Below, one piece after another: positions 25,591 to 34,133 of a stretch of 64,000 nt of DNA. Source of the stretch: Alphaproteobacteria bacterium (GTDB lineage: Bacteria > Pseudomonadota > Alphaproteobacteria > Bin95); the NCBI GenBank assembly GCA_965215305.1, contig OZ244041.1, forward strand, positions 3,486,283 through 3,550,282, written 5' to 3'. The notes under the pieces were generated by a model. That model did not search any database. It was not told where the DNA came from and saw only the letters and a list, made by a program, of their open reading frames with translations. The number at the start of each line of letters is the position of its first letter. The first letter of the stretch is position 1. The position numbers and the translations under genes are program-made.

Positions 25591-27012
25591 ATGGACGGGC
25601 TCCACACGACAGCGACGGACGCAGCAACGGCGAACCGGCCGATCGCCGCCATGCTGGCCGAATTCGCCTGCGGGCTCGACGACCGGGCGGTTCCCGATCG
25701 GGTGATGGAGCGCGCGCGCCTGCATATTCTGGACTGCATCGGCATCGCGCTCGCCTCGACCGGCTACGAGTTCGGGCAGCGCACGGTGGACGCCATGCGC
25801 GGGCTCGCCGGCGAGGGGCCGTCGCCCGTCATCGGCGCGGATGTCCGCCTGCCGATGCGCGATGCGGCGCTCGTCAACGGCACGCTGGTCCACGGCCTCG
25901 ACTATGACGACACCCATTCCGACGGCGTGGTCCATGCCTCGGCCTCGGCCTTCGTCGCCGCGCTCGCGCAGGGCTTCGCGTCCGGCGCGACCGGGCGGGC
26001 GTTGCTGGCCGCCTATCTGGTCGGCGTGGAAGCCTCCTCGCGGATCGGCCAGGCGGCCCAGGGCGGCTTCCATCTGCGTGGGCACCATCCGACCGGCCTC
26101 GTGGGCGCGTTCGGCGCGGCGCTGACGGCGGCCCGCCTTGCCGGCCTGTCCGAGCGCGAGGCGGCGATGGCGCAGGGCATTGCGCTCTCCATGGCCGCCG
26201 GCAGCCTGGAGTTCCTGTCCGACGGCGCCTGGACGAAGCGCATCCATCCCGGCTGGGCGGCGGTGGCCGGCATCACCGCCGCGGCGCTCGCCGGCGGTGG
26301 CTTCCAGGGGCCGAGCGCGCCCTATGAGGGCCGTTACGGCCTCTACAACCTGCATCTCGGCGCGGATCACGAGGCGCGGCTTGACATGGCGACGGCGGAT
26401 CTGGGCGAGGTCTGGGAGCTGGAGAATGTGGCGTTCAAGCCCTACCCCGCCTGCCACTTCAACCACGCCTTCGCCGACGCTGCCCTGGCGCTCCGGCGCG
26501 AATACGGGCTCCGGCCGGAGGATGTGGACAGCATTACCGGCTATCTGGCCGAGGCGCAGGCCAATGTCGTCTGCCGCCCGGAAGCGACCAAGAAGCGCCC
26601 GCAGAACAGCTATGACGCGCAGTTCTCGATGCACTACACCATTGCAGCGGCGCTCAAGCACGGGCGCTTCACGCTGGACGAGATCGACGCGCAGGCGATC
26701 ACCGACCCCGAGGTGCTGGCGCTGGCGGACCGGGTGGATTTCGCCATCGATCCGGACACGGCCTTCCCTCGCTACTATTCCGGCGAGATCAGGGTCCGCA
26801 CCCGTGACGGGCGCGAGTTCAGCCACCGCGAATCGGTCAACCGGGGCTCGGACGCCAACCCACTCTCAGCGGAGGATATCTCGGCCAAGTTCCGGGACAA
26901 TGCGCAGCGCGCCGTCGGCCCGGAGCGCATGGAGCGGATCTTCGACGCCGTCATGACCCTCGACCGCGCCCCCGACCTCGGCGCGCTCGACGCCGCGCTC
27001 TGCCAGGGCTGA
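25591..27012 (+). CDS. MmgE/PrpD family protein
   Basis: NGTLVHGLDYDDTH, VHAS, KRIHPG, FKPYPACH, AQFS. Confidence 0.92.
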   Translation: MDGLHTTATDAATANRPIAAMLAEFACGLDDRAVPDRVMERARLHILDCIGIALASTGYEFGQRTVDAMRGLAGEGPSPVIGADVRLPMRDAALVNGTLVHGLDYDDTHSDGVVHASASAFVAALAQGFASGATGRALLAAYLVGVEASSRIGQAAQGGFHLRGHHPTGLVGAFGAALTAARLAGLSEREAAMAQGIALSMAAGSLEFLSDGAWTKRIHPGWAAVAGITAAALAGGGFQGPSAPYEGRYGLYNLHLGADHEARLDMATADLGEVWELENVAFKPYPACHFNHAFADAALALRREYGLRPEDVDSITGYLAEAQANVVCRPEATKKRPQNSYDAQFSMHYTIAAALKHGRFTLDEIDAQAITDPEVLALADRVDFAIDPDTAFPRYYSGEIRVRTRDGREFSHRESVNRGSDANPLSAEDISAKFRDNAQRAVGPERMERIFDAVMTLDRAPDLGALDAALCQG

Positions 27013-27097
27013 GACAAGGCGCCGGATTGACGCCGGCCTCCGTCGGAATAGCTACTTGCCCCGCCCGAACGGCAGAGCACGCTGACCGGAGGACCGG

Positions 27098-29380
27098 ATG
27101 CCGTCTCGTTTCTCTTCCATCGCCGCGGGGCTTGCCGTCGGCGCGATAGCGCTCGCGCTCTCGGCCTGTTCGCTGCTGGCGCCGCTGCCGAAACCCAAGG
27201 GCGTCGCCGCGCGTCTGGAGGCCTTCCCGGCACGCGGCCTGCCGTTGGAAGGGCGCGTGACGATCCGCTGGAACGAGCAGCAGATTCCCTTCATCGAGGC
27301 GCAAAGCGACGGCGATGCGGCGTTTGCGCTCGGCCTCGTGCACGCGCATTTGCGGCTCGGCCAGATGGCGACGGTGCGCATGCTCGCGCGCGGACGGTTG
27401 TCGGAGATGATCGGCCCCCTGGGCGTCGACATCGACCGCGGCCTGCGCACGCTTTCCTATGCCCGCGCAGCGGCGGAAATCGAACGGGACATGGACGAGG
27501 CCACCCTGCTCTGGGTCCGGCGTTTCGTGGAGGGCGTCAACCACTACCAGACCGCCGCCGCCGAACTGCCGCACGATTTCGGCGTTCTGGGCCTGGAGCC
27601 GGAGCCCTGGACCGTGGCCGACGTCCTGGCCATCGGCCGCCTCGGGGGCACCGATGTGAACTGGCTGGTCTGGGCCGATCTGCTGCCGCACCGCGCGCGA
27701 AAGGACTGGTCCGAACTCTGGGCGCGCCTCGTGAAGCAGGGAAGCGCGTCCTTCGCCAGTTTCGGCGGCCCGGAGCGGACGGCCGCGATACGGCAATGGC
27801 TCGCCGGGCTGCCGAAATCGGGCAGCAACAGCGTCGCCGTGGCGGGCCATCGCAGCGCCACCGGCGGCGCACTCATGGCCAACGACCCCCATCTCGGCAT
27901 ATTTATACCCAATGTCTGGCTGATCGCCGGCCTTAAATCCCCCTCCTACCACGCCGTCGGACTGATGGCGCCGGGCCTGCCGATCTTCGCCATCGGCCGC
28001 AATCCGCACATCGCCTGGGGCGGCACGAACATGCGCGCGGCCTCGAGCGACCTCATCGATGTTCGCGGCATACCCGATTCCGGGATCGCGGAACGGCGGG
28101 AGCCGATCGGCGTGCGCTGGTGGTTCGACGAGGAGATAACCGTCCGCGAGACCCGCTGGGGGCCGATCGTGACCGACACGCCGCTTCTCTCGGGGTTGGA
28201 CCTGCCGCCGCTTGCGCTGAAATGGACCGGGCACAGCGCGAGCGACGAAATCGGCGCCATGCTTGCGGCGAGCCGGGCGGAGAGCTTCCCGGAGTTCCGC
28301 GCCGCCTTCGACCGCTTCGCCGTGCCGGGACAGAACATGCTCTATGCCGACAGGGACGGGAATATCGGCCAGGTGATGGCAGTGCAGCTGCCCGCGCGCC
28401 GGGGCGTGCCTGCGGACATTTTCCTCGACAGGGCCGCGCATGACGCCTCCTGGGGCGCGATGCGCGGCGCAGCGGACCTTCCCTGGAGCCTCAACCCGGA
28501 CAACGGCTTCCTGGTCTCGGCCAATAACCGCCCGACGGAGACGGACATACCCGTCGGGTTCTTCTTTTCGCCCGACGACCGCGTCAAGCGCATGACCCGG
28601 CTGGTCGGGAGCGGGGGCAAGGTGGACGTCGAGGCCCTCAAGGCGCTGCAACGGGATGTGTATATGCCGTCCTCGGCCGCGCTGCGCGACCTCTTCCTTT
28701 CCCGGATGGACGCGCTGGGGCTGGCCGAGACGGCCGACGCCAAAAGCGTCGAGGCGATAGACCGGCTGCGCCAATGGGACGGCGCATATCGGCGCGACTC
28801 CCTCGGCGCAGTCGCTTTCGAGCAGTTCCGCCACAGCTTCACCCAGCGCTTCTATGTCCTCCGCTACGGCGAAGACGACGGCGAGTCCTTTGCGAAGATG
28901 CGCCGTGGCACGGCGCTGTTGACCGACGATATCGCCGCTGCGGACGAGGAGACCATGCGCGCGGCGCTCGCCGCCGGACTGCGCGCAGCGGCGGACGGCC
29001 TCGACGCCTTCTCCGATTGGGGAGACATGCACCGTCTCCGCCTCGCCCACCCGCTCTCCCGCATTCCGCTCATCGGCGGGAAATACCGTTTCGTTGAAGA
29101 GGGCGTCGGCGGCAGTTCGGAGACGGTGATGAAGACCGCGCATAACGCGACGACGGAGCGCCATACGGTCACATACGGCTCCAATGCGCGCCATATTTCG
29201 GACCTGTCACACCCGGACGAGAATTATTTCGCCCTGCTCGGCGGGCAGGACGGCTGGTTCAACAGCTCGACCATGCTCGACCAGTGGGAGCTGTGGCGCC
29301 GGGGTGACTATGTGCGCGTGCCTCTGACGCTGTCCGAAGTGCGCGCGCAATTCCCGCATGCGCTGTCGCTGGAGAAGTGA
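27098..29380 (+). CDS. Penicillin acylase family (S45 Ntn-hydrolase) lipoprotein
   Basis: Lipobox LALSAC, LG.VHA..RL.QM, GRLSE..G, autocleavage site G/SNSVAV, ANDPHL, PGQN..YAD..GNIG, SANN. Confidence 0.9.
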   Translation: MPSRFSSIAAGLAVGAIALALSACSLLAPLPKPKGVAARLEAFPARGLPLEGRVTIRWNEQQIPFIEAQSDGDAAFALGLVHAHLRLGQMATVRMLARGRLSEMIGPLGVDIDRGLRTLSYARAAAEIERDMDEATLLWVRRFVEGVNHYQTAAAELPHDFGVLGLEPEPWTVADVLAIGRLGGTDVNWLVWADLLPHRARKDWSELWARLVKQGSASFASFGGPERTAAIRQWLAGLPKSGSNSVAVAGHRSATGGALMANDPHLGIFIPNVWLIAGLKSPSYHAVGLMAPGLPIFAIGRNPHIAWGGTNMRAASSDLIDVRGIPDSGIAERREPIGVRWWFDEEITVRETRWGPIVTDTPLLSGLDLPPLALKWTGHSASDEIGAMLAASRAESFPEFRAAFDRFAVPGQNMLYADRDGNIGQVMAVQLPARRGVPADIFLDRAAHDASWGAMRGAADLPWSLNPDNGFLVSANNRPTETDIPVGFFFSPDDRVKRMTRLVGSGGKVDVEALKALQRDVYMPSSAALRDLFLSRMDALGLAETADAKSVEAIDRLRQWDGAYRRDSLGAVAFEQFRHSFTQRFYVLRYGEDDGESFAKMRRGTALLTDDIAAADEETMRAALAAGLRAAADGLDAFSDWGDMHRLRLAHPLSRIPLIGGKYRFVEEGVGGSSETVMKTAHNATTERHTVTYGSNARHISDLSHPDENYFALLGGQDGWFNSSTMLDQWELWRRGDYVRVPLTLSEVRAQFPHALSLEK

Positions 29381-29407
29381 CGACGGAAGGGGACCGGGCC
29401 ACCGGCC

Positions 29408-30949
29408 ATGCATGACGCGACCTGGCTTCTCCGGCTCTATGCCCGCCACCGCCTTCGGCAGCTGGCGCAGATAGACCCGAAGCAGGCGCAGCGCCGTGTC
29501 CTGTCGTCCCTCATCCGGAAGGCGCGCGACACGCAATTCGGGCGGGACCACGGGTTTTCCGACGCCTGGTCCCTCGACGATTTCCGGTCGCGCGTCCCGC
29601 TCAGGGACTATGACGCCTTCTGGGAAAGCTACTGGCGCACGCCCTTCCCGCGCCTGGACAATTGCACCTGGCCGGGGCCCGTTCCGTGGTTCGCCGTGTC
29701 GTCCGGCACAACGACCGGCACCACGAAATACATCCCCGTCAGCCGCGAGATGCGCCGGTCGAACGTGCGCGCGGGCACCGAACTGTTGGTCCACCATGTT
29801 GCCAACCGGCCGGAAAGCCGGCTGCTCGCGGGCCGTGTCTTCATGCTCGGCGGTTCAACCGGGCTGGTCCGGCAGGCGCCGGGGGTCTCCAGCGGCGACC
29901 TGAGCGGCATCGCGGCGGCGGAAATGCCCGGCTGGGCAAGGCTGCGCTACTTCCCGCCGCACGACCTGGAGACGATCGCCGACTGGGAGGAGAAGATCGA
30001 CCGCTTTGCGGAGCGCTCCCTGGACGAAGAGATTTCGGGCGTTGCCGGCACGCCGAACTGGCTGCTGATCTTTTTCGAGCGCCTGGCCGAGATCGCCGGC
30101 GGGGCGAGCCGGATTGCCGACATTTATCCCGCATTGGAAATGCTGTCGCACGGAGGCGTCGCCTGGGCGCCCTACCGCGACCGTTTCGCCGCCCTGCTCG
30201 AAGGCAGCGACGCGGAAACGCGCGAGGTCTATCCCGCAAGCGAGGGGTTCTTCGGCATTGCCGACCGCGCGGACGGCGAGGGCCTCCGGCTTCTGCTCGA
30301 CACGGGCATCTTCTACGAATTCATTCCCCTCGACCGGCTGGACGACCCCGAACCCGACTGCCGCTGGGTGGGCGACGTGGAGCCGGGCGTCAACTACGCC
30401 CTCGCCGTGACCACATGCGCGGGGCTCTGGCGCTACATCGTCGGCGACACGGTGACCGTGGTCGAACGCGACCCGCCGCGCGTCCTCGTCACCGGGCGGA
30501 CGAGCTACATGCTGTCCGCCTTCGGCGAACATGTGATCGGCGCCGAGGTCGAGCGCGCCGTGGCGGAAGCCGCAAGGGCCATCGACGCGACGGTCACCGA
30601 CTTCGCCGCCGGCAGCCTGTTTCCGGAGGAAGCCGGCCAGCGCGGCGGGCATCTCTATATCGTCGAGTTCGGAGCGGACGGGGCCGGCATCGACCGCGGG
30701 CGGCAGGCGCGCTTCGCCGAAACGCTGGATGCAGCGCTCTGCCGCCTCAATGACGACTATGACGCCCACCGCGCCGGCGGCTACGGCATGGACGCGGCGC
30801 GCGTGCGCCTCATGCCTCCCGGCGGCTTCGCGGCATGGATGAAGAGCCGCGGCAAGCTCGGCGGACAGAACAAGGTGCCCCGCATCGTCAACGACCGCGC
30901 ACTCTTCGCCGCCTTGCAGGCATTCGCCGACGGATACGGGGCCCCGTGA
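29408..30949 (+). CDS. GH3 auxin-responsive-promoter family protein (ANL-type acyl-amido synthetase)
   Basis: T.FGR.HGF, SSGTTTGTTKYIP, YPASEGFFG, FYEFIP, GLWRY.VGD, GKLGGQNKVPR. Confidence 0.92.
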   Translation: MHDATWLLRLYARHRLRQLAQIDPKQAQRRVLSSLIRKARDTQFGRDHGFSDAWSLDDFRSRVPLRDYDAFWESYWRTPFPRLDNCTWPGPVPWFAVSSGTTTGTTKYIPVSREMRRSNVRAGTELLVHHVANRPESRLLAGRVFMLGGSTGLVRQAPGVSSGDLSGIAAAEMPGWARLRYFPPHDLETIADWEEKIDRFAERSLDEEISGVAGTPNWLLIFFERLAEIAGGASRIADIYPALEMLSHGGVAWAPYRDRFAALLEGSDAETREVYPASEGFFGIADRADGEGLRLLLDTGIFYEFIPLDRLDDPEPDCRWVGDVEPGVNYALAVTTCAGLWRYIVGDTVTVVERDPPRVLVTGRTSYMLSAFGEHVIGAEVERAVAEAARAIDATVTDFAAGSLFPEEAGQRGGHLYIVEFGADGAGIDRGRQARFAETLDAALCRLNDDYDAHRAGGYGMDAARVRLMPPGGFAAWMKSRGKLGGQNKVPRIVNDRALFAALQAFADGYGAP

Positions 30950-31039
30950 CGCCCCAACCCAAAATTGACGCGCCCCCTGTCCGCCGCCATAGTTGACGGC
31001 AAGATGAATGACAGTCGGGCGCTGCCGAGGGGACGGTCG

Positions 31040-31408
31040 ATGGAGACGGTGAGGGTCGGGTCGGTCGAGGAGTTCGAGCCGCTGCCCGCCAGGAAGGTGG
31101 TGGAGGTCGGCGGCGAGGAGATCGGCGTCTTCCGTCTCGATGATGGCTTCTACGCTTGGCGCAACAACTGCCCGCACCAGGGCGGCCCGGTCTGCCAGGG
31201 CCGTATCTATCAACGCGTGCTGGAGGCGCTCGACGCCGGGCGCCGCTCGCTCGGGCGGCGCTATGACGAGGAGCGGGTCAATATCGTCTGCCCGTGGCAC
31301 GGGCTGGAATACGACATCCGCACCGGCCGCCATCCCGGCAATGACGGCATGGCGCTGGAGCCTGTCGCGGTCCAGGTGCAGAGTGGAGAGGTCTATGTCT
31401 CCCTCTGA
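31040..31408 (+). CDS. Rieske [2Fe-2S] ferredoxin
   Basis: CPHQGGP ... CPWHG, with a long insert between the two motifs. Confidence 0.92.
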   Translation: METVRVGSVEEFEPLPARKVVEVGGEEIGVFRLDDGFYAWRNNCPHQGGPVCQGRIYQRVLEALDAGRRSLGRRYDEERVNIVCPWHGLEYDIRTGRHPGNDGMALEPVAVQVQSGEVYVSL

Positions 31409-31772
31409 CCTGAGGGGCCATAACGATCCCTATGCGGATTTCGATGAGGACGCCCGCCGGCTCTGGATGATGGCCGCCGAGGCGGTCGAGCGCGGCGAGG
31501 CCCACCAGATACCGGACAGCGCCGTCGCCGACCTGATGACCGCCGCCGTCAAGCTATATGCCGCCAAGGCCGACGGCGAGGACCGCACCTTCCGCCCGCT
31601 GCGCGGGCGCTATGACGAGGTGGTAACGCCGACCGAGGCGCTCACCGCCGTCACCGAATTGCTGCGGGCGCTCCGCCTCGGGCCGATGGAGTTCGGCCTC
31701 TGGTCCCGTCGCCGCCCGGAGGATTACCATTTGAGCGAGGCCGCGCCTGCGGCCGTGCAGGAGGAGGCCTGA
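31395..31772 (+). CDS. Small helical hypothetical protein (125 aa) coupled to the Rieske and amidohydrolase genes
   Basis: Overlaps the Rieske gene by 14 nt and ends 4 nt before the next ATG. Reads LMTAAVKLYAAK...TPTEALTAVTELLRA....MEFGLW. Confidence 0.75.
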   Translation: MSPSDLRGHNDPYADFDEDARRLWMMAAEAVERGEAHQIPDSAVADLMTAAVKLYAAKADGEDRTFRPLRGRYDEVVTPTEALTAVTELLRALRLGPMEFGLWSRRRPEDYHLSEAAPAAVQEEA

Positions 31773-31776
31773 GCCC

Positions 31777-33012
31777 ATGGATGCCGCGATCCGGACCGCC
31801 AGCGCGATGCCCGTGCAGGAAATGGGCGTCGAGACCGACACGAGGGACTATCTGGCCCATGCCCGCGCGCATGCCCGCAAGGCGGGCTATGCCGACTGGA
31901 CGATCGTGGATATCGACGCCCACCATGTCGAGACAGTGCATTGGCACGAGATCATCGACTATATCGAGGATCCCGTGCTGCGCCACCAGGCGCAGATGTA
32001 CCAGAAGGAGCGCATCGGCGCGCCGCCCTACGGCCTCAACGGCGATCTCGGCCTGCGCTACCAGGATGTCGGCGGGCGCATTCCGCACCAGTCCTCGCGG
32101 CGCGAGAAGGTGGATGAGCCGGGCGTGCATCTCGACGTGGCGCTGACACGCCGGGCGATGGACGCGCTTTGTGTCGATTACATGGTGCTCTTCCCGACGC
32201 CGATGCTGTTCATCGGCATGCACCCGCAGGTGGAGATGGAGGCGGTGCTGTCGAACGCCTACAATCGCTGGCTGGCGGAGAATGTGCTTTCGGCCGAGGA
32301 CGGTATCCTGTCGCTCGCCGTGCTGCCCTTCAACTCGCCGGACGCCGCCTGCCGCACGGTCGAGGAATTCGGCGACAACCCGAATGTGATCGGCTTCACC
32401 GTCACCTCAACCCGCTATAAGCCGGTGCATTCCAACGAATATATGCGCCTCTACCGCATGATCGAGGAGACCGGAAAGCCCATCGCCTTCCATGCCGGCT
32501 ACCATTGGCAGGACCCCTCGCTCGCCACCTGCAACAGCTTCCTCGGCATGCACGCTCTGGGCTTCGTGTGGTGCAACCTCGTCCACATGACCAACTGGAT
32601 CCTGAACGGCATCCCCGAGCGTTTCCCGAAGCTGAACAGCCTCTGGGTCGAGAGCGGGCTTTCCTGGGTGCCGTTCCTGATGCAGCGGCTCGACGACCAG
32701 TATCTGATGCGCCAAAGCGAAGCGCCGCTGCTGACGAAGATGCCGTCCGACTATATGCGCGAATCCTGCTTCTATACCTGCCAGCCGATGGAGAAGAGCA
32801 GCGAGGTCGGGCTGAAGGCCACCCTGGAGATGATCAACGCCGAGACGCAGCTTCTCTACGCCTCGGACTGGCCGCATTTCGACTTCGATGCGCCGCGCGC
32901 GATCTACGACATCCCGTTCCTGAGCGAGGACCAGAAGCGAAACATCCTCGGCCGCAACGCCGCCCGCCTGTTCAACCTGCCGGGGAAGCAGAGCGCGCGA
33001 AAGGCGGCTTGA
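31777..33012 (+). CDS. Amidohydrolase_2-fold protein, candidate dinuclear metal oxygenase subunit
   Basis: DIDAHHVE, LFPT, AYNRWL, AFHA, ERFPKL, WVESG, ASDWPHFDFD, ILG.NA.RLF. Confidence 0.85.
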   Translation: MDAAIRTASAMPVQEMGVETDTRDYLAHARAHARKAGYADWTIVDIDAHHVETVHWHEIIDYIEDPVLRHQAQMYQKERIGAPPYGLNGDLGLRYQDVGGRIPHQSSRREKVDEPGVHLDVALTRRAMDALCVDYMVLFPTPMLFIGMHPQVEMEAVLSNAYNRWLAENVLSAEDGILSLAVLPFNSPDAACRTVEEFGDNPNVIGFTVTSTRYKPVHSNEYMRLYRMIEETGKPIAFHAGYHWQDPSLATCNSFLGMHALGFVWCNLVHMTNWILNGIPERFPKLNSLWVESGLSWVPFLMQRLDDQYLMRQSEAPLLTKMPSDYMRESCFYTCQPMEKSSEVGLKATLEMINAETQLLYASDWPHFDFDAPRAIYDIPFLSEDQKRNILGRNAARLFNLPGKQSARKAA

Positions 33013-33090
33013 CCCGGCGCCAATTCCTCCTGGGCCGTCCCTACAGGATTCACAGATCCTGTTTCTGACGGCATCGCATCATGCGCCCTA

Positions 33091-33113
33091 CCCTTGTCGC
33101 CGCGGACGGCGCG
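33091..33113. repeat. Degenerate REP-like half element
   Basis: CCCTTGTCGCCGCGGACGGCGCG versus CCCTTGTCACCCCGGACGGCGCG at 34443 (2 mismatches). Confidence 0.5.
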
Positions 33114-33191
33114 CATCCCTCCCTTGTGAGTGACAACCCGGCGCCGCATGACAAGCCAAAGGCCGGAGTGAAGCCTTTCCGGGAAACGACT

Positions 33192-34133
33192 ATGCGTAAA
33201 TCCGTCCCGGCTCTTACTGCCGCCGCTCTTGCCCTGACCGCATGTCAGACCATGAAATCGGAAACCGTCAATTACACAACCGCAAATGTACAAAACAGAT
33301 TTATTCTGAGTAACAAAACAATCACATCGTTTCCTATAACACTTTCCGGCAGATTGTGGTTGCCTGAAGGTAACGGACCATTTCCGGTTGTGGTATGGGG
33401 ACATCCGTCCACAATGGGAAGTAATAACCTGGCGCAATGGCGACGCAATCTCAGAAGTGAACTTATTTCCGAAGGCATCGGTATTTTCTTTAGTGATTCC
33501 TATACAGGACGCGGTTTGCCTCGTAGCAACACCTGGATCAAACTTAATTCCTCCAGTCGATATGTGGACGGAATACGCGCTCTTGACGCATTAGCCAAAC
33601 ATCAAAAAGTCGATCCGAAACGAATCGGTATCAGCGGAGCCAGCTTCGGAGCGAATGTCGCCATGCGGCTTCAATGGGAAACCCATATGAATCAGATACA
33701 ACCCGGCGGACCTCGGTATGCCGCCCATGTAGCGATATACCCGCCCTGCAATACCATTATCAAGGATTACAAATCCACGGGAGCACCAATGTTGATCCTT
33801 ATCGGTGAGAAAGACTGGAATTATGCCAGCCGTTGCGAAGATCGAGCGAAGGAACTCCAGAAATCTGGCGCACAAGTGAAAGTCATTATATATCCCGGTG
33901 CTTATCATTGCTTCCTTGCTTCAACGCCACCGAAAATAGTCAATAGTCCGGTTTACGGGGATTGCGGGGTCAGAATTTTTGATAAGGAAACAGGCCTCTC
34001 TACGAGAATAAATGCCAGAGACACTTGGCCTAATTGTATCAAGCCGCAAGGCATGTGTGGAGGAAATCGTACAGCTTCTGATGATGCTTTGAGGCGCACC
34101 GTTGCATTCTTTGTCAAACATTTGCGGAAGTAA
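33192..34133 (+). CDS. Dienelactone hydrolase-like alpha/beta hydrolase lipoprotein (AT-rich, likely foreign)
   Basis: Lipobox LALTAC, nucleophile elbow GASFG, GEKD, YPGAYH. Many A/T-ending codons. Confidence 0.82.
   Translation: MRKSVPALTAAALALTACQTMKSETVNYTTANVQNRFILSNKTITSFPITLSGRLWLPEGNGPFPVVVWGHPSTMGSNNLAQWRRNLRSELISEGIGIFFSDSYTGRGLPRSNTWIKLNSSSRYVDGIRALDALAKHQKVDPKRIGISGASFGANVAMRLQWETHMNQIQPGGPRYAAHVAIYPPCNTIIKDYKSTGAPMLILIGEKDWNYASRCEDRAKELQKSGAQVKVIIYPGAYHCFLASTPPKIVNSPVYGDCGVRIFDKETGLSTRINARDTWPNCIKPQGMCGGNRTASDDALRRTVAFFVKHLRK

Follow-up and report, generated by a model that had tools for sequence, protein, structure and literature searches.

We wanted to know why a gene for a predicted exported amide hydrolase should lie directly before a gene for a predicted cytoplasmic amide ligase, and what the two enzymes might do together. 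The genes occupy positions 27,098 to 30,949 of a 64,000-nucleotide stretch of alphaproteobacterial DNA (contig OZ244041.1 of GenBank assembly GCA_965215305.1, positions 3,486,283 to 3,550,282 of the forward strand), which was analyzed at its full length and is referred to here as the window. The first gene (27098..29380, plus strand) encodes the 760-residue precursor of an N-terminal nucleophile (Ntn) hydrolase of the S45, or penicillin-acylase, family (Pfam PF01804, E = 1.9e-150). The second (29408..30949, plus strand) encodes a 513-residue, predicted cytoplasmic GH3-family protein with Pfam GH3 domains and a match to NCBIfam NF052613, and we regard it as a predicted OlsH-like, ATP-dependent fatty acid-amino acid ligase. 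The S45 stop and the GH3 start are separated by 27 nucleotides (29381..29407, plus strand) without a terminator-like hairpin (a terminator scan found four terminator-like sites, none of them inside this gap), and the two genes are probably co-transcribed. The lipobox of the S45 protein, the 27-nucleotide gap, the GH3 motifs, and the lack of a GH3 signal peptide had been reported in an initial annotation of this DNA and were all borne out, with the coordinates of the open reading frames (ORFs) exact. Overall, we conclude that the S45 and GH3 proteins are best explained as a self-contained module that would act on one class of N-fatty-acyl amino compound from opposite sides of the inner membrane.

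The predicted topology rests on features of both proteins. The S45 protein begins with MPSRFSSIAAGLAVGAIALALSAC, in which a positively charged start is followed by a hydrophobic core and the lipobox LSAC with Cys24; the lipoprotein signal peptide comprises residues 1-24 (27098-27169), and the Kyte-Doolittle maximum over 19 residues is 2.17 (residues 8-30). LSAC with Cys24, behind a hydrophobic stretch, matches the lipobox pattern [LVI][ASTVI][GAS]C at the close of a signal peptide. A lipobox-like motif was seen in 40 of 48 S45 orthologues, and 2 further were recognized by eye. We noted that, in the S45 proteins of loci L012 and L015, arginine takes the place of the lipobox cysteine (LSAR), with the hydrophobic region intact, and that those of L039, L040, L042, and L055 have no recognizable lipobox; anchoring may differ in these lineages. 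For the GH3 protein, a hydropathy scan (maximum 1.06) revealed no signal peptide and no membrane or hydrophobic segment. The initial annotation had placed the acylase outside and the GH3 enzyme inside the inner membrane, and these features support that placement.

The S45 protein appears to be equipped for catalysis. Its match to PF01804 (503.6 bits against a cut-off of 21.3) aligns residues 54-749 with profile positions 2-674 of 675. The hallmark of S45 enzymes is a serine, flanked by glycine and asparagine (Gly-Ser-Asn), that forms the N terminus of the beta chain, with a conserved histidine about 22 residues further on. In the window protein, an alpha chain to about residue 215 is followed by a spacer (residues 216-241) and by a beta chain starting from the nucleophile Ser243 (27824-27826), which aligns to residue 1 of the solved beta chains. 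Gly-242, Ser-243, Asn-244, and His-265 are unchanged in the 48 orthologues and in 25 diverse orthologues, and Asn-476 is invariant in the 25. An AlphaFold2 model, for which 25 orthologues served as the alignment input, had a predicted local distance difference test (pLDDT) score of 85.9 and a predicted template-modeling (pTM) score of 0.88. Low confidence was confined to the signal peptide and residues 216-241; the latter had pLDDT < 50 and were modeled as disordered, as would be expected because the spacer removed on autoproteolysis should lie there. The best Foldseek match was D-succinylase (7eby; template-modeling (TM) score 0.77, 24-25% identity), next came cephalosporin/glutaryl acylases, and the acylases MacQ and PvdQ followed at ranks 13 and 49; there were 78 matches at E ≤ 0.001, and every one listed was an S45 acylase. 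Profile scores against solved chains gave the same order, with D-succinylase first at 276 bits, followed by class III glutaryl acylase at 175, penicillin G acylases at 95-155, and PvdQ at 46-51. The NCBIfam model for PvdQ (NF051460) reached only 42.1 bits over a 70-residue stretch, against a cut-off of 950. We therefore consider sound the prediction that this is a catalytically intact S45 Ntn amidase of an uncharacterized clade; at 24-25% identity, the nearest structures appear too distant to reveal its substrate. The same genome contains a second, paralogous S45 gene (L079, G000:C1:2364625-2366598, minus strand, 795-residue frame, Pfam 587 bits).

The GH3 protein matches the three GH3 Pfam domains (cut-off 23.6 bits), namely PF03321 at 1.1e-29 (104.1 bits), GH3_M (PF23571) at 1.1e-15 (57.9 bits), and GH3_C (PF23572) at 8.5e-17 (62.4 bits), and it has all three nucleotide-binding motifs, SSGTTTGTTK (residues 98-107), YPASE (275), and WRYIVGD (341). 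The match to the NCBIfam model NF052613 (OlsH_GH3_orni, "lyso-ornithine lipid synthetase OlsH") is nearly full-length (1.6e-173, 578 bits) and extends over model positions 22-510 of 524, whereas plant GH3 structures score at most 58 bits against the window protein. On the same model, alphaproteobacterial GH3s score 519-612 bits versus 399-420 for the four Bacteroidota/Chlorobiota GH3s that were scanned, and the alphaproteobacterial clade is therefore the closer to OlsH. As described in 2025, OlsH of the planctomycete Singulisphaera acidiphila is an ATP-dependent N-acyl-ornithine synthetase, a soluble GH3-like enzyme that converts free fatty acid, ornithine, ATP, and Mg2+ to N-acyl-ornithine without coenzyme A (CoA) or acyl carrier protein (ACP), preferring ornithine, with lysine and arginine as minor substrates (PMC12493201). 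Its motifs TSGTTQGATK (in which the serine is essential), TYPCSE, and GMWSHLIGD follow the pattern seen in the window protein, and in Escherichia coli the enzyme is limited by the supply of free fatty acid (PMC12493201). The paper also describes olsH in an operon with genes for the O-acyltransferase OlsI, found in all planctomycete cases, and the methyltransferase OlsG, and it leaves the function of alphaproteobacterial and Bacteroidota homologues undecided (PMC12493201). The view in the initial annotation that bacterial GH3 proteins are largely uncharacterized has thus been overtaken, and homology of the window protein points to a fatty acid and a basic amino acid as its likely substrates. 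Clustering of flanking ORFs from 78 loci and the window revealed no alpha/beta hydrolase conserved beside GH3; DLH-type hydrolases related to one in the window (28-30% identity) lie directly 3' of GH3 only in L042 and L055, and at a distance of some 6 kb on the 3' side in L026, L035, L045, L047, and L048.

We next consider how far the pairing is conserved. A set of 78 species-level loci encoding GH3 relatives was searched with the window proteins. In the 66 alphaproteobacterial loci (GH3 identity 46-90%), an S45 gene lies within the 10-kb flank in 55. It is upstream on the same strand in 50 of the 66, with a gap of at most 41 nucleotides in 39 of these 50 (one is 2.5 kb off and one is a fragment); in the other five it is downstream on the same strand (four loci) or upstream on the opposite strand (one locus). 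The flanks of the remaining 11 loci, one of which has just 772 nucleotides of upstream sequence, hold no S45 gene, nor do any of the 12 Bacteroidota/Chlorobiota flanks. Whole-genome searches for the 10 loci with adequate flank and no adjacent S45 gene located an orthologue elsewhere in 8 (43-68% identity), a contig-edge S45 fragment in 1, and no S45 orthologue in 1 (G403). The S45-GH3 adjacency far exceeds chance. Further, when 1250 ORFs (rough calls from all loci and the window) were clustered all against all, the S45 family was represented in the window and in 51 of the 78 loci, which makes 52 sources, and the next commonest family occurred in 11. Neither this clustering nor Pfam scans of 50 flanking ORFs revealed a third conserved gene, be it a transporter, an OlsI-like hydrolase, or a regulator; in the more distant loci, the scanned ORFs were unrelated housekeeping genes. 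In one complete genome (G006; L083:2989-6915; G006:C1, ~4855988-4859914), the two genes form a single open frame of 1308 amino acids, in which the S45 stop is absent, about 20 codons lead into GH3's own ATG, and the lipobox (LAGC) is retained; this may reflect a genuine fusion, read-through, or an error in sequencing. When longer proteins were searched for, none with S45 and GH3 fused emerged, which is weak evidence either way, and G353 has separate ORFs.

The distribution of the two genes was also determined in 401 Alphaproteobacteria sampled evenly over the class, a sample that may overlap the locus set and in which related genomes are not independent. GH3 was counted if full-length with E < 1e-100 (four partial matches, 1e-21 to 1e-27, were excluded), and S45 matches were bimodal, with orthologues at 339-1723 bits and 39-100% identity and paralogues at 246 bits or less and about 33%. 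Paralogues of this type are present in many of the genomes, including some without the GH3-linked clade. GH3 was present in 48 genomes, the S45 clade in 63, and both in 42; the two genes are adjacent in 32 of these 42, apart in 8, and interrupted by contig ends in 2. The initial annotation had named a lack of conserved adjacency as one finding that would refute its proposal; the 50 of 66 loci above, with both genes in 42 of the 48 GH3 genomes, do not refute it. Twenty-one genomes have S45 but no GH3, and 6 have GH3 but no S45 (in 3 of these 6, GH3 is no more than 1.1 kb from a contig end), which suggests that the acylase has a substrate independent of GH3 and that the ligase may depend on what the acylase yields. 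Genomes of the same genus or family in the sample (G312 and G172) have neither gene, and the distribution of the pair is therefore patchy; G180, with a genome of 1.5 Mb, retains the adjacent pair. We noted two GH3 genes in tandem in G264 (G264:C1:153092-156125), where the S45 gene is 770 kb away, and two tandem S45 orthologues on a 4.8-kb contig of G081 (L100, G081:C239), a 79%-complete genome in which no GH3 was found. In G382 (G382:C1:2419098-2420559), GH3 is broken into two frames, probably a frameshift or pseudogene, and the S45 orthologue is about 1 Mb off.

In a maximum-likelihood tree that combined 18 solo S45 sequences with 48 linked to GH3, and for which the paralogue from the window's own genome served as the outgroup, solo and linked sequences are interleaved, with well-supported branches that force at least five changes. 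The large S45 clade that contains the window is GH3-linked throughout (38 of 38). In L009, L025, L027, and L029, a GH3 that is 77-80% identical to that of the window lies beside an S45 gene from a distant branch (41-42%), downstream or on the opposite strand. Because a different S45 branch stands beside GH3 in these loci, the link has been re-formed, which argues for function over inherited synteny. The 18 solo S45 loci revealed no conserved partner. Two candidates at individual loci were rejected: an AMP-binding enzyme downstream in L095, considered as a fatty-acid ligase, scored as acetoacetate-CoA ligase at 831 bits, and a nearby FA_hydroxylase in L086, considered as OlsE, reached 85 bits versus 475 on the OlsE model. 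Together, these comparisons lend support to the suggestion in the initial annotation that an amide ligase and an amidase on opposite sides of the membrane are coupled in function.

About half of all bacterial species contain ornithine lipids, for whose synthesis three routes are known. The window's genome (complete, 3.94 Mb, with one GH3 and two S45 genes) has an olsB-olsA operon away from the pair, with OlsB at 293 bits (cut-off 320) and OlsA at 256 bits (cut-off 300), and GH3 would therefore supplement the canonical pathway and not substitute for OlsB. In this operon (L082, G000:C1:2059361-2062684, outside the window), a gene for a Ros/MucR-family regulator is followed on the same strand by olsB (313 amino acids) and by olsA (264 amino acids), whose start overlaps the stop of olsB. 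An OlsB-family gene (E ≤ 1e-30) was found in 255 of the 401 genomes overall, and in 48 of 48 GH3 genomes and 21 of 21 S45-only genomes (69 of 69). In genomes G001-G059, for which every genome's status is listed, all 10 genomes with the S45 clade had OlsB, as did 16 of the 20 with a paralogous S45 only and 13 of the 29 without any S45. This co-occurrence is consistent with an ornithine-lipid connection.

Given these observations, the reading that we favor, tentatively and as somewhat short of probable, is a salvage loop in which the acylase would cleave an amide of the N-acyl-ornithine or lyso-ornithine-lipid type outside and GH3 would re-ligate the fatty acid inside, feeding OlsA. The S45 protein would be an exported, lipid-anchored N-acyl amide hydrolase, activated by autoproteolysis at Ser243. 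In the periplasm or at the outer membrane, it would convert lyso-ornithine-lipid-type amides, which could stem from wear or remodeling of OlsBA-made lipid, to fatty acid and amino acid. The released fatty acid would then return into the cell, where GH3 would adenylate it with ATP and then, needing neither CoA nor ACP, attach it through the alpha-amino group to an amino acid, which is most likely basic and may well be ornithine. This step would yield N-acyl-ornithine, a lyso-ornithine lipid, and OlsA, encoded elsewhere in the genome, would finish the lipid. We favor this outside-first order because the acylase is often alone and the ligase rarely so, because the OlsB product is expected in every carrier, and because free fatty acid limits OlsH. 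Further, a two-gene module in ever-changing surroundings implies that the substrates should be common metabolites. A stronger claim, which we regard as doubtful, is that the S45 clade represents the first (lyso-)ornithine-lipid N-deacylase and, with GH3, a trans-envelope cycle that disassembles and rebuilds the lipid, an ATP-costing form of retrograde recycling. Amino-lipid present in the periplasm or outer membrane would be hydrolyzed on site, and both products, fatty acid and ornithine, would be joined again in the cytoplasm.

Several points weigh against this salvage reading. First, the 578 bits of the window GH3 lie below the OlsH equivalog cut-off of 620, which none of the 401 sampled Alphaproteobacteria passes (top score, 611.9), and because of this the protein is filed as OlsH-like and not as OlsH. 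Second, OlsH favors non-hydroxylated fatty acids, and its signal with hydroxypalmitate was weak (PMC12493201); lyso-ornithine lipid carries a 3-hydroxy acid, unlike these preferred substrates. Third, genome size and lifestyle are confounders of the co-occurrence with OlsB, which was counted in related genomes uncorrected for phylogeny; among genomes with both coordinates listed, S45 is never adjacent to olsB. Fourth, the solved neighbors of the S45 protein, D-succinylase and glutaryl acylase, take short polar acyl groups. Fifth, hydrolyzing and then rebuilding the same amide costs ATP. Finally, we infer co-transcription, as we do the identity of the acyl and amino moieties and the order of the reactions.

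The order proposed in the initial annotation was the reverse: GH3 would make an N-acyl amide in the cytoplasm, which would be exported or flipped and then deacylated outside by S45. Such a pathway could serve acyl-tethered export or maturation, as PvdQ does for pyoverdine, or it could keep the level of a signal or surfactant of the N-acyl-amino-acid type steady. The evidence of linkage, co-occurrence, and topology applies to it identically, and PvdQ provides a precedent for cytoplasmic acylation followed by periplasmic S45 deacylation. Further, non-planctomycete homologues of OlsH have been proposed to make other N-acyl amino acids. This order fits the distribution poorly: of the 63 genomes with S45, 21 lack GH3, whereas only 6 of the 48 with GH3 lack S45, and the S45-only genomes, together with the interleaving of solo and linked sequences over at least five changes in the tree, imply that S45 is independent of a GH3 product. 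Nor is an exporter, a nonribosomal peptide synthetase (NRPS), or another biosynthetic gene conserved beside the pair, and the window S45 protein reaches 42 bits on the PvdQ model against a cut-off of 950. We consider this order unlikely.

The ability of the acylase to stand alone, as in the 21 S45-only genomes, would also fit scavenging of foreign compounds, in which S45 would quench or scavenge N-acylhomoserine lactones (AHLs), lipopeptides, or N-acyl amino acids and GH3 would build the released fatty acid into an amino-lipid or an N-acyl amino acid. AHL acylases are numerous among S45 enzymes, and GH3 requires free fatty acid, which is scarce in cells (PMC12493201). The S45 protein has low similarity to the structurally known AHL acylases (PvdQ at 51 bits, and MacQ and PvdQ at Foldseek ranks 13 and 49), ordinary acyl-CoA ligases could use such fatty acids, and scavenging leaves the presence of OlsB in 69 of 69 carriers unexplained. 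A search for a LuxI-type synthase in the window's genome gave no match, but the control matched nowhere, which makes the result uninformative. On balance, we give the scavenging of foreign compounds little credence.

That the closest solved relatives of the S45 protein are D-succinylase and glutaryl acylases raises a further alternative, a cycle in which a small N-acyl amino acid with a short or polar (succinyl- or glutaryl-like) or an aromatic acyl group would be made and broken; plant GH3s do conjugate non-lipid acids (PMC12493201). A cycle of this kind seems to us very unlikely, since the GH3 protein aligns end to end with OlsH at 578 bits versus at most 58 bits for plant GH3 structures and the 24-25% identity to D-succinylase is too low for transfer of specificity. 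Last, that adjacency is merely inherited synteny within one alphaproteobacterial lineage, with no functional link, is highly improbable: although the carriers found are all Alphaproteobacteria and 11 of 66 loci lack S45 in the flank, the pair is retained at GH3 identities as low as 46% although all other neighbors change, 9 of 10 unlinked genomes still hold both genes (one S45 a contig-edge fragment), and a different S45 branch has re-associated with GH3 in four loci.

The genes around the pair in the window are shared with close relatives only. An MmgE/PrpD gene (25591-27012, plus strand; 473-residue ORF; Pfam MmgE_PrpD_N 1.2e-56, MmgE_PrpD_C 6.7e-39) lies upstream on the same strand, as the initial annotation stated, and proved not to be part of the module, given that it adjoins the pair in only 9 of 78 loci, in each of which GH3 identity is at least 82%. 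After GH3 come genes for a small Rieske [2Fe-2S] protein (30965-31408) and an Amidohydro_2 protein (31777-33012), which are 84-98% identical in the closest relatives and are not beside the pair elsewhere; the Rieske gene occurs in 12 of 78 loci (the 11 closest relatives and a differently placed, 51%-identical copy in L062) and the Amidohydro_2 gene in 11 of 78. All three were rejected as module parts. An overlapping ORF (31140-31772) has no Pfam match. The G+C content falls to 0.57 in the 2-kb bin 32001-34000, versus 0.65-0.72 elsewhere in the window, and this bin includes a gene for a DLH/Abhydrolase_3-type alpha/beta hydrolase (33081-34133, plus strand) 2.1 kb 3' of GH3. Upstream of the S45 gene, a Shine-Dalgarno-like GGAGGA (27088..27093, plus strand), read from the sequence, stands 4 nucleotides 5' of the start codon. 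Of 17 related loci that were aligned with the window, 15 retain GGAG(G/C/A)A at this position and two (L001 and L011) have just a short spacer there; the remaining upstream sequence diverges. A conserved operator 5' of S45 was rejected, as the ribosome-binding site is the sole conserved upstream element.

Both halves of the pair belong to known groups, the OlsH-like GH3s and the S45 superfamily; their conserved coupling is new, as is the role in amino-lipid turnover or salvage that it implies. The 2026 review of ornithine lipids (PMC12971839) contains no occurrence of "acylase," "amidase," "degradation," or "turnover," and our literature search, outside which lay subscription journals and supplements, found no published description of an S45-GH3 pairing or of an ornithine-lipid deacylase. 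The pair is thus a concrete candidate for amino-lipid turnover or salvage. If the stronger claim above is true, it would establish retrograde recycling of a membrane lipid that contains no phosphorus and whose turnover is not described by any pathway in the literature searched. The salvage reading, if true, would provide a function for a large uncharacterized S45 clade (63 of 401 Alphaproteobacteria) and for the alphaproteobacterial GH3s. Synthesis of N-acyl amino acids without CoA, together with a matching hydrolase, may also be of interest for biosurfactant production.

Comparison with known systems places the pair as follows. The OlsH-OlsI pathway of S. acidiphila (PMC12493201) has in common with the window a soluble GH3-like enzyme with three nucleotide-binding motifs. 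The chemistry is probably alike (free fatty acid, ATP, and amino acid to N-acyl amino acid). The window GH3 differs in that its score is below 620, in that its partner is an exported S45 amidase and not the O-acyltransferase OlsI (an alpha/beta-hydrolase) or the methyltransferase OlsG, and in that its genome also has olsB-olsA, so that GH3 is not the sole lipid route. D-succinylase (7ea4/7eby) and class III glutaryl-7-ACA acylase (4hst) share with the window S45 protein the fold (TM score 0.77), the Gly-Ser-Asn nucleophile, and the alpha-spacer-beta precursor, and D-succinylase hydrolyzes N-acyl amino acids, as predicted for the window enzyme; these enzymes are 24-25% identical to it and act on short polar acyl groups, whereas the window S45 is a predicted lipoprotein gene-linked to a predicted fatty-acid ligase. 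In pyoverdine maturation, the periplasmic S45 acylase PvdQ strips off a fatty acyl group whose attachment in the cytoplasm was the work of an adenylating enzyme; the window S45 scores 42 bits on the PvdQ model, with its cut-off of 950, and has no siderophore or NRPS cluster, the pair standing alone in variable surroundings. Plants oppose a GH3 ligase with an ILR1-type amidohydrolase acting on the same amide (auxin, jasmonate). Their hydrolases are M20 metallopeptidases and not S45 enzymes, the substrates are hormones, and the genes are unlinked, unlike the window pair. The LplT-Aas system of E. coli is a two-gene lysophospholipid repair system of the envelope; its adenylate-forming enzyme restores a membrane lipid from the lyso form at the expense of free fatty acid and ATP. 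It resembles the proposed loop in logic, without homologous parts: LplT flips the intact lyso-lipid, whereas the window pair would dismantle its lyso-lipid outside and rebuild it inside.

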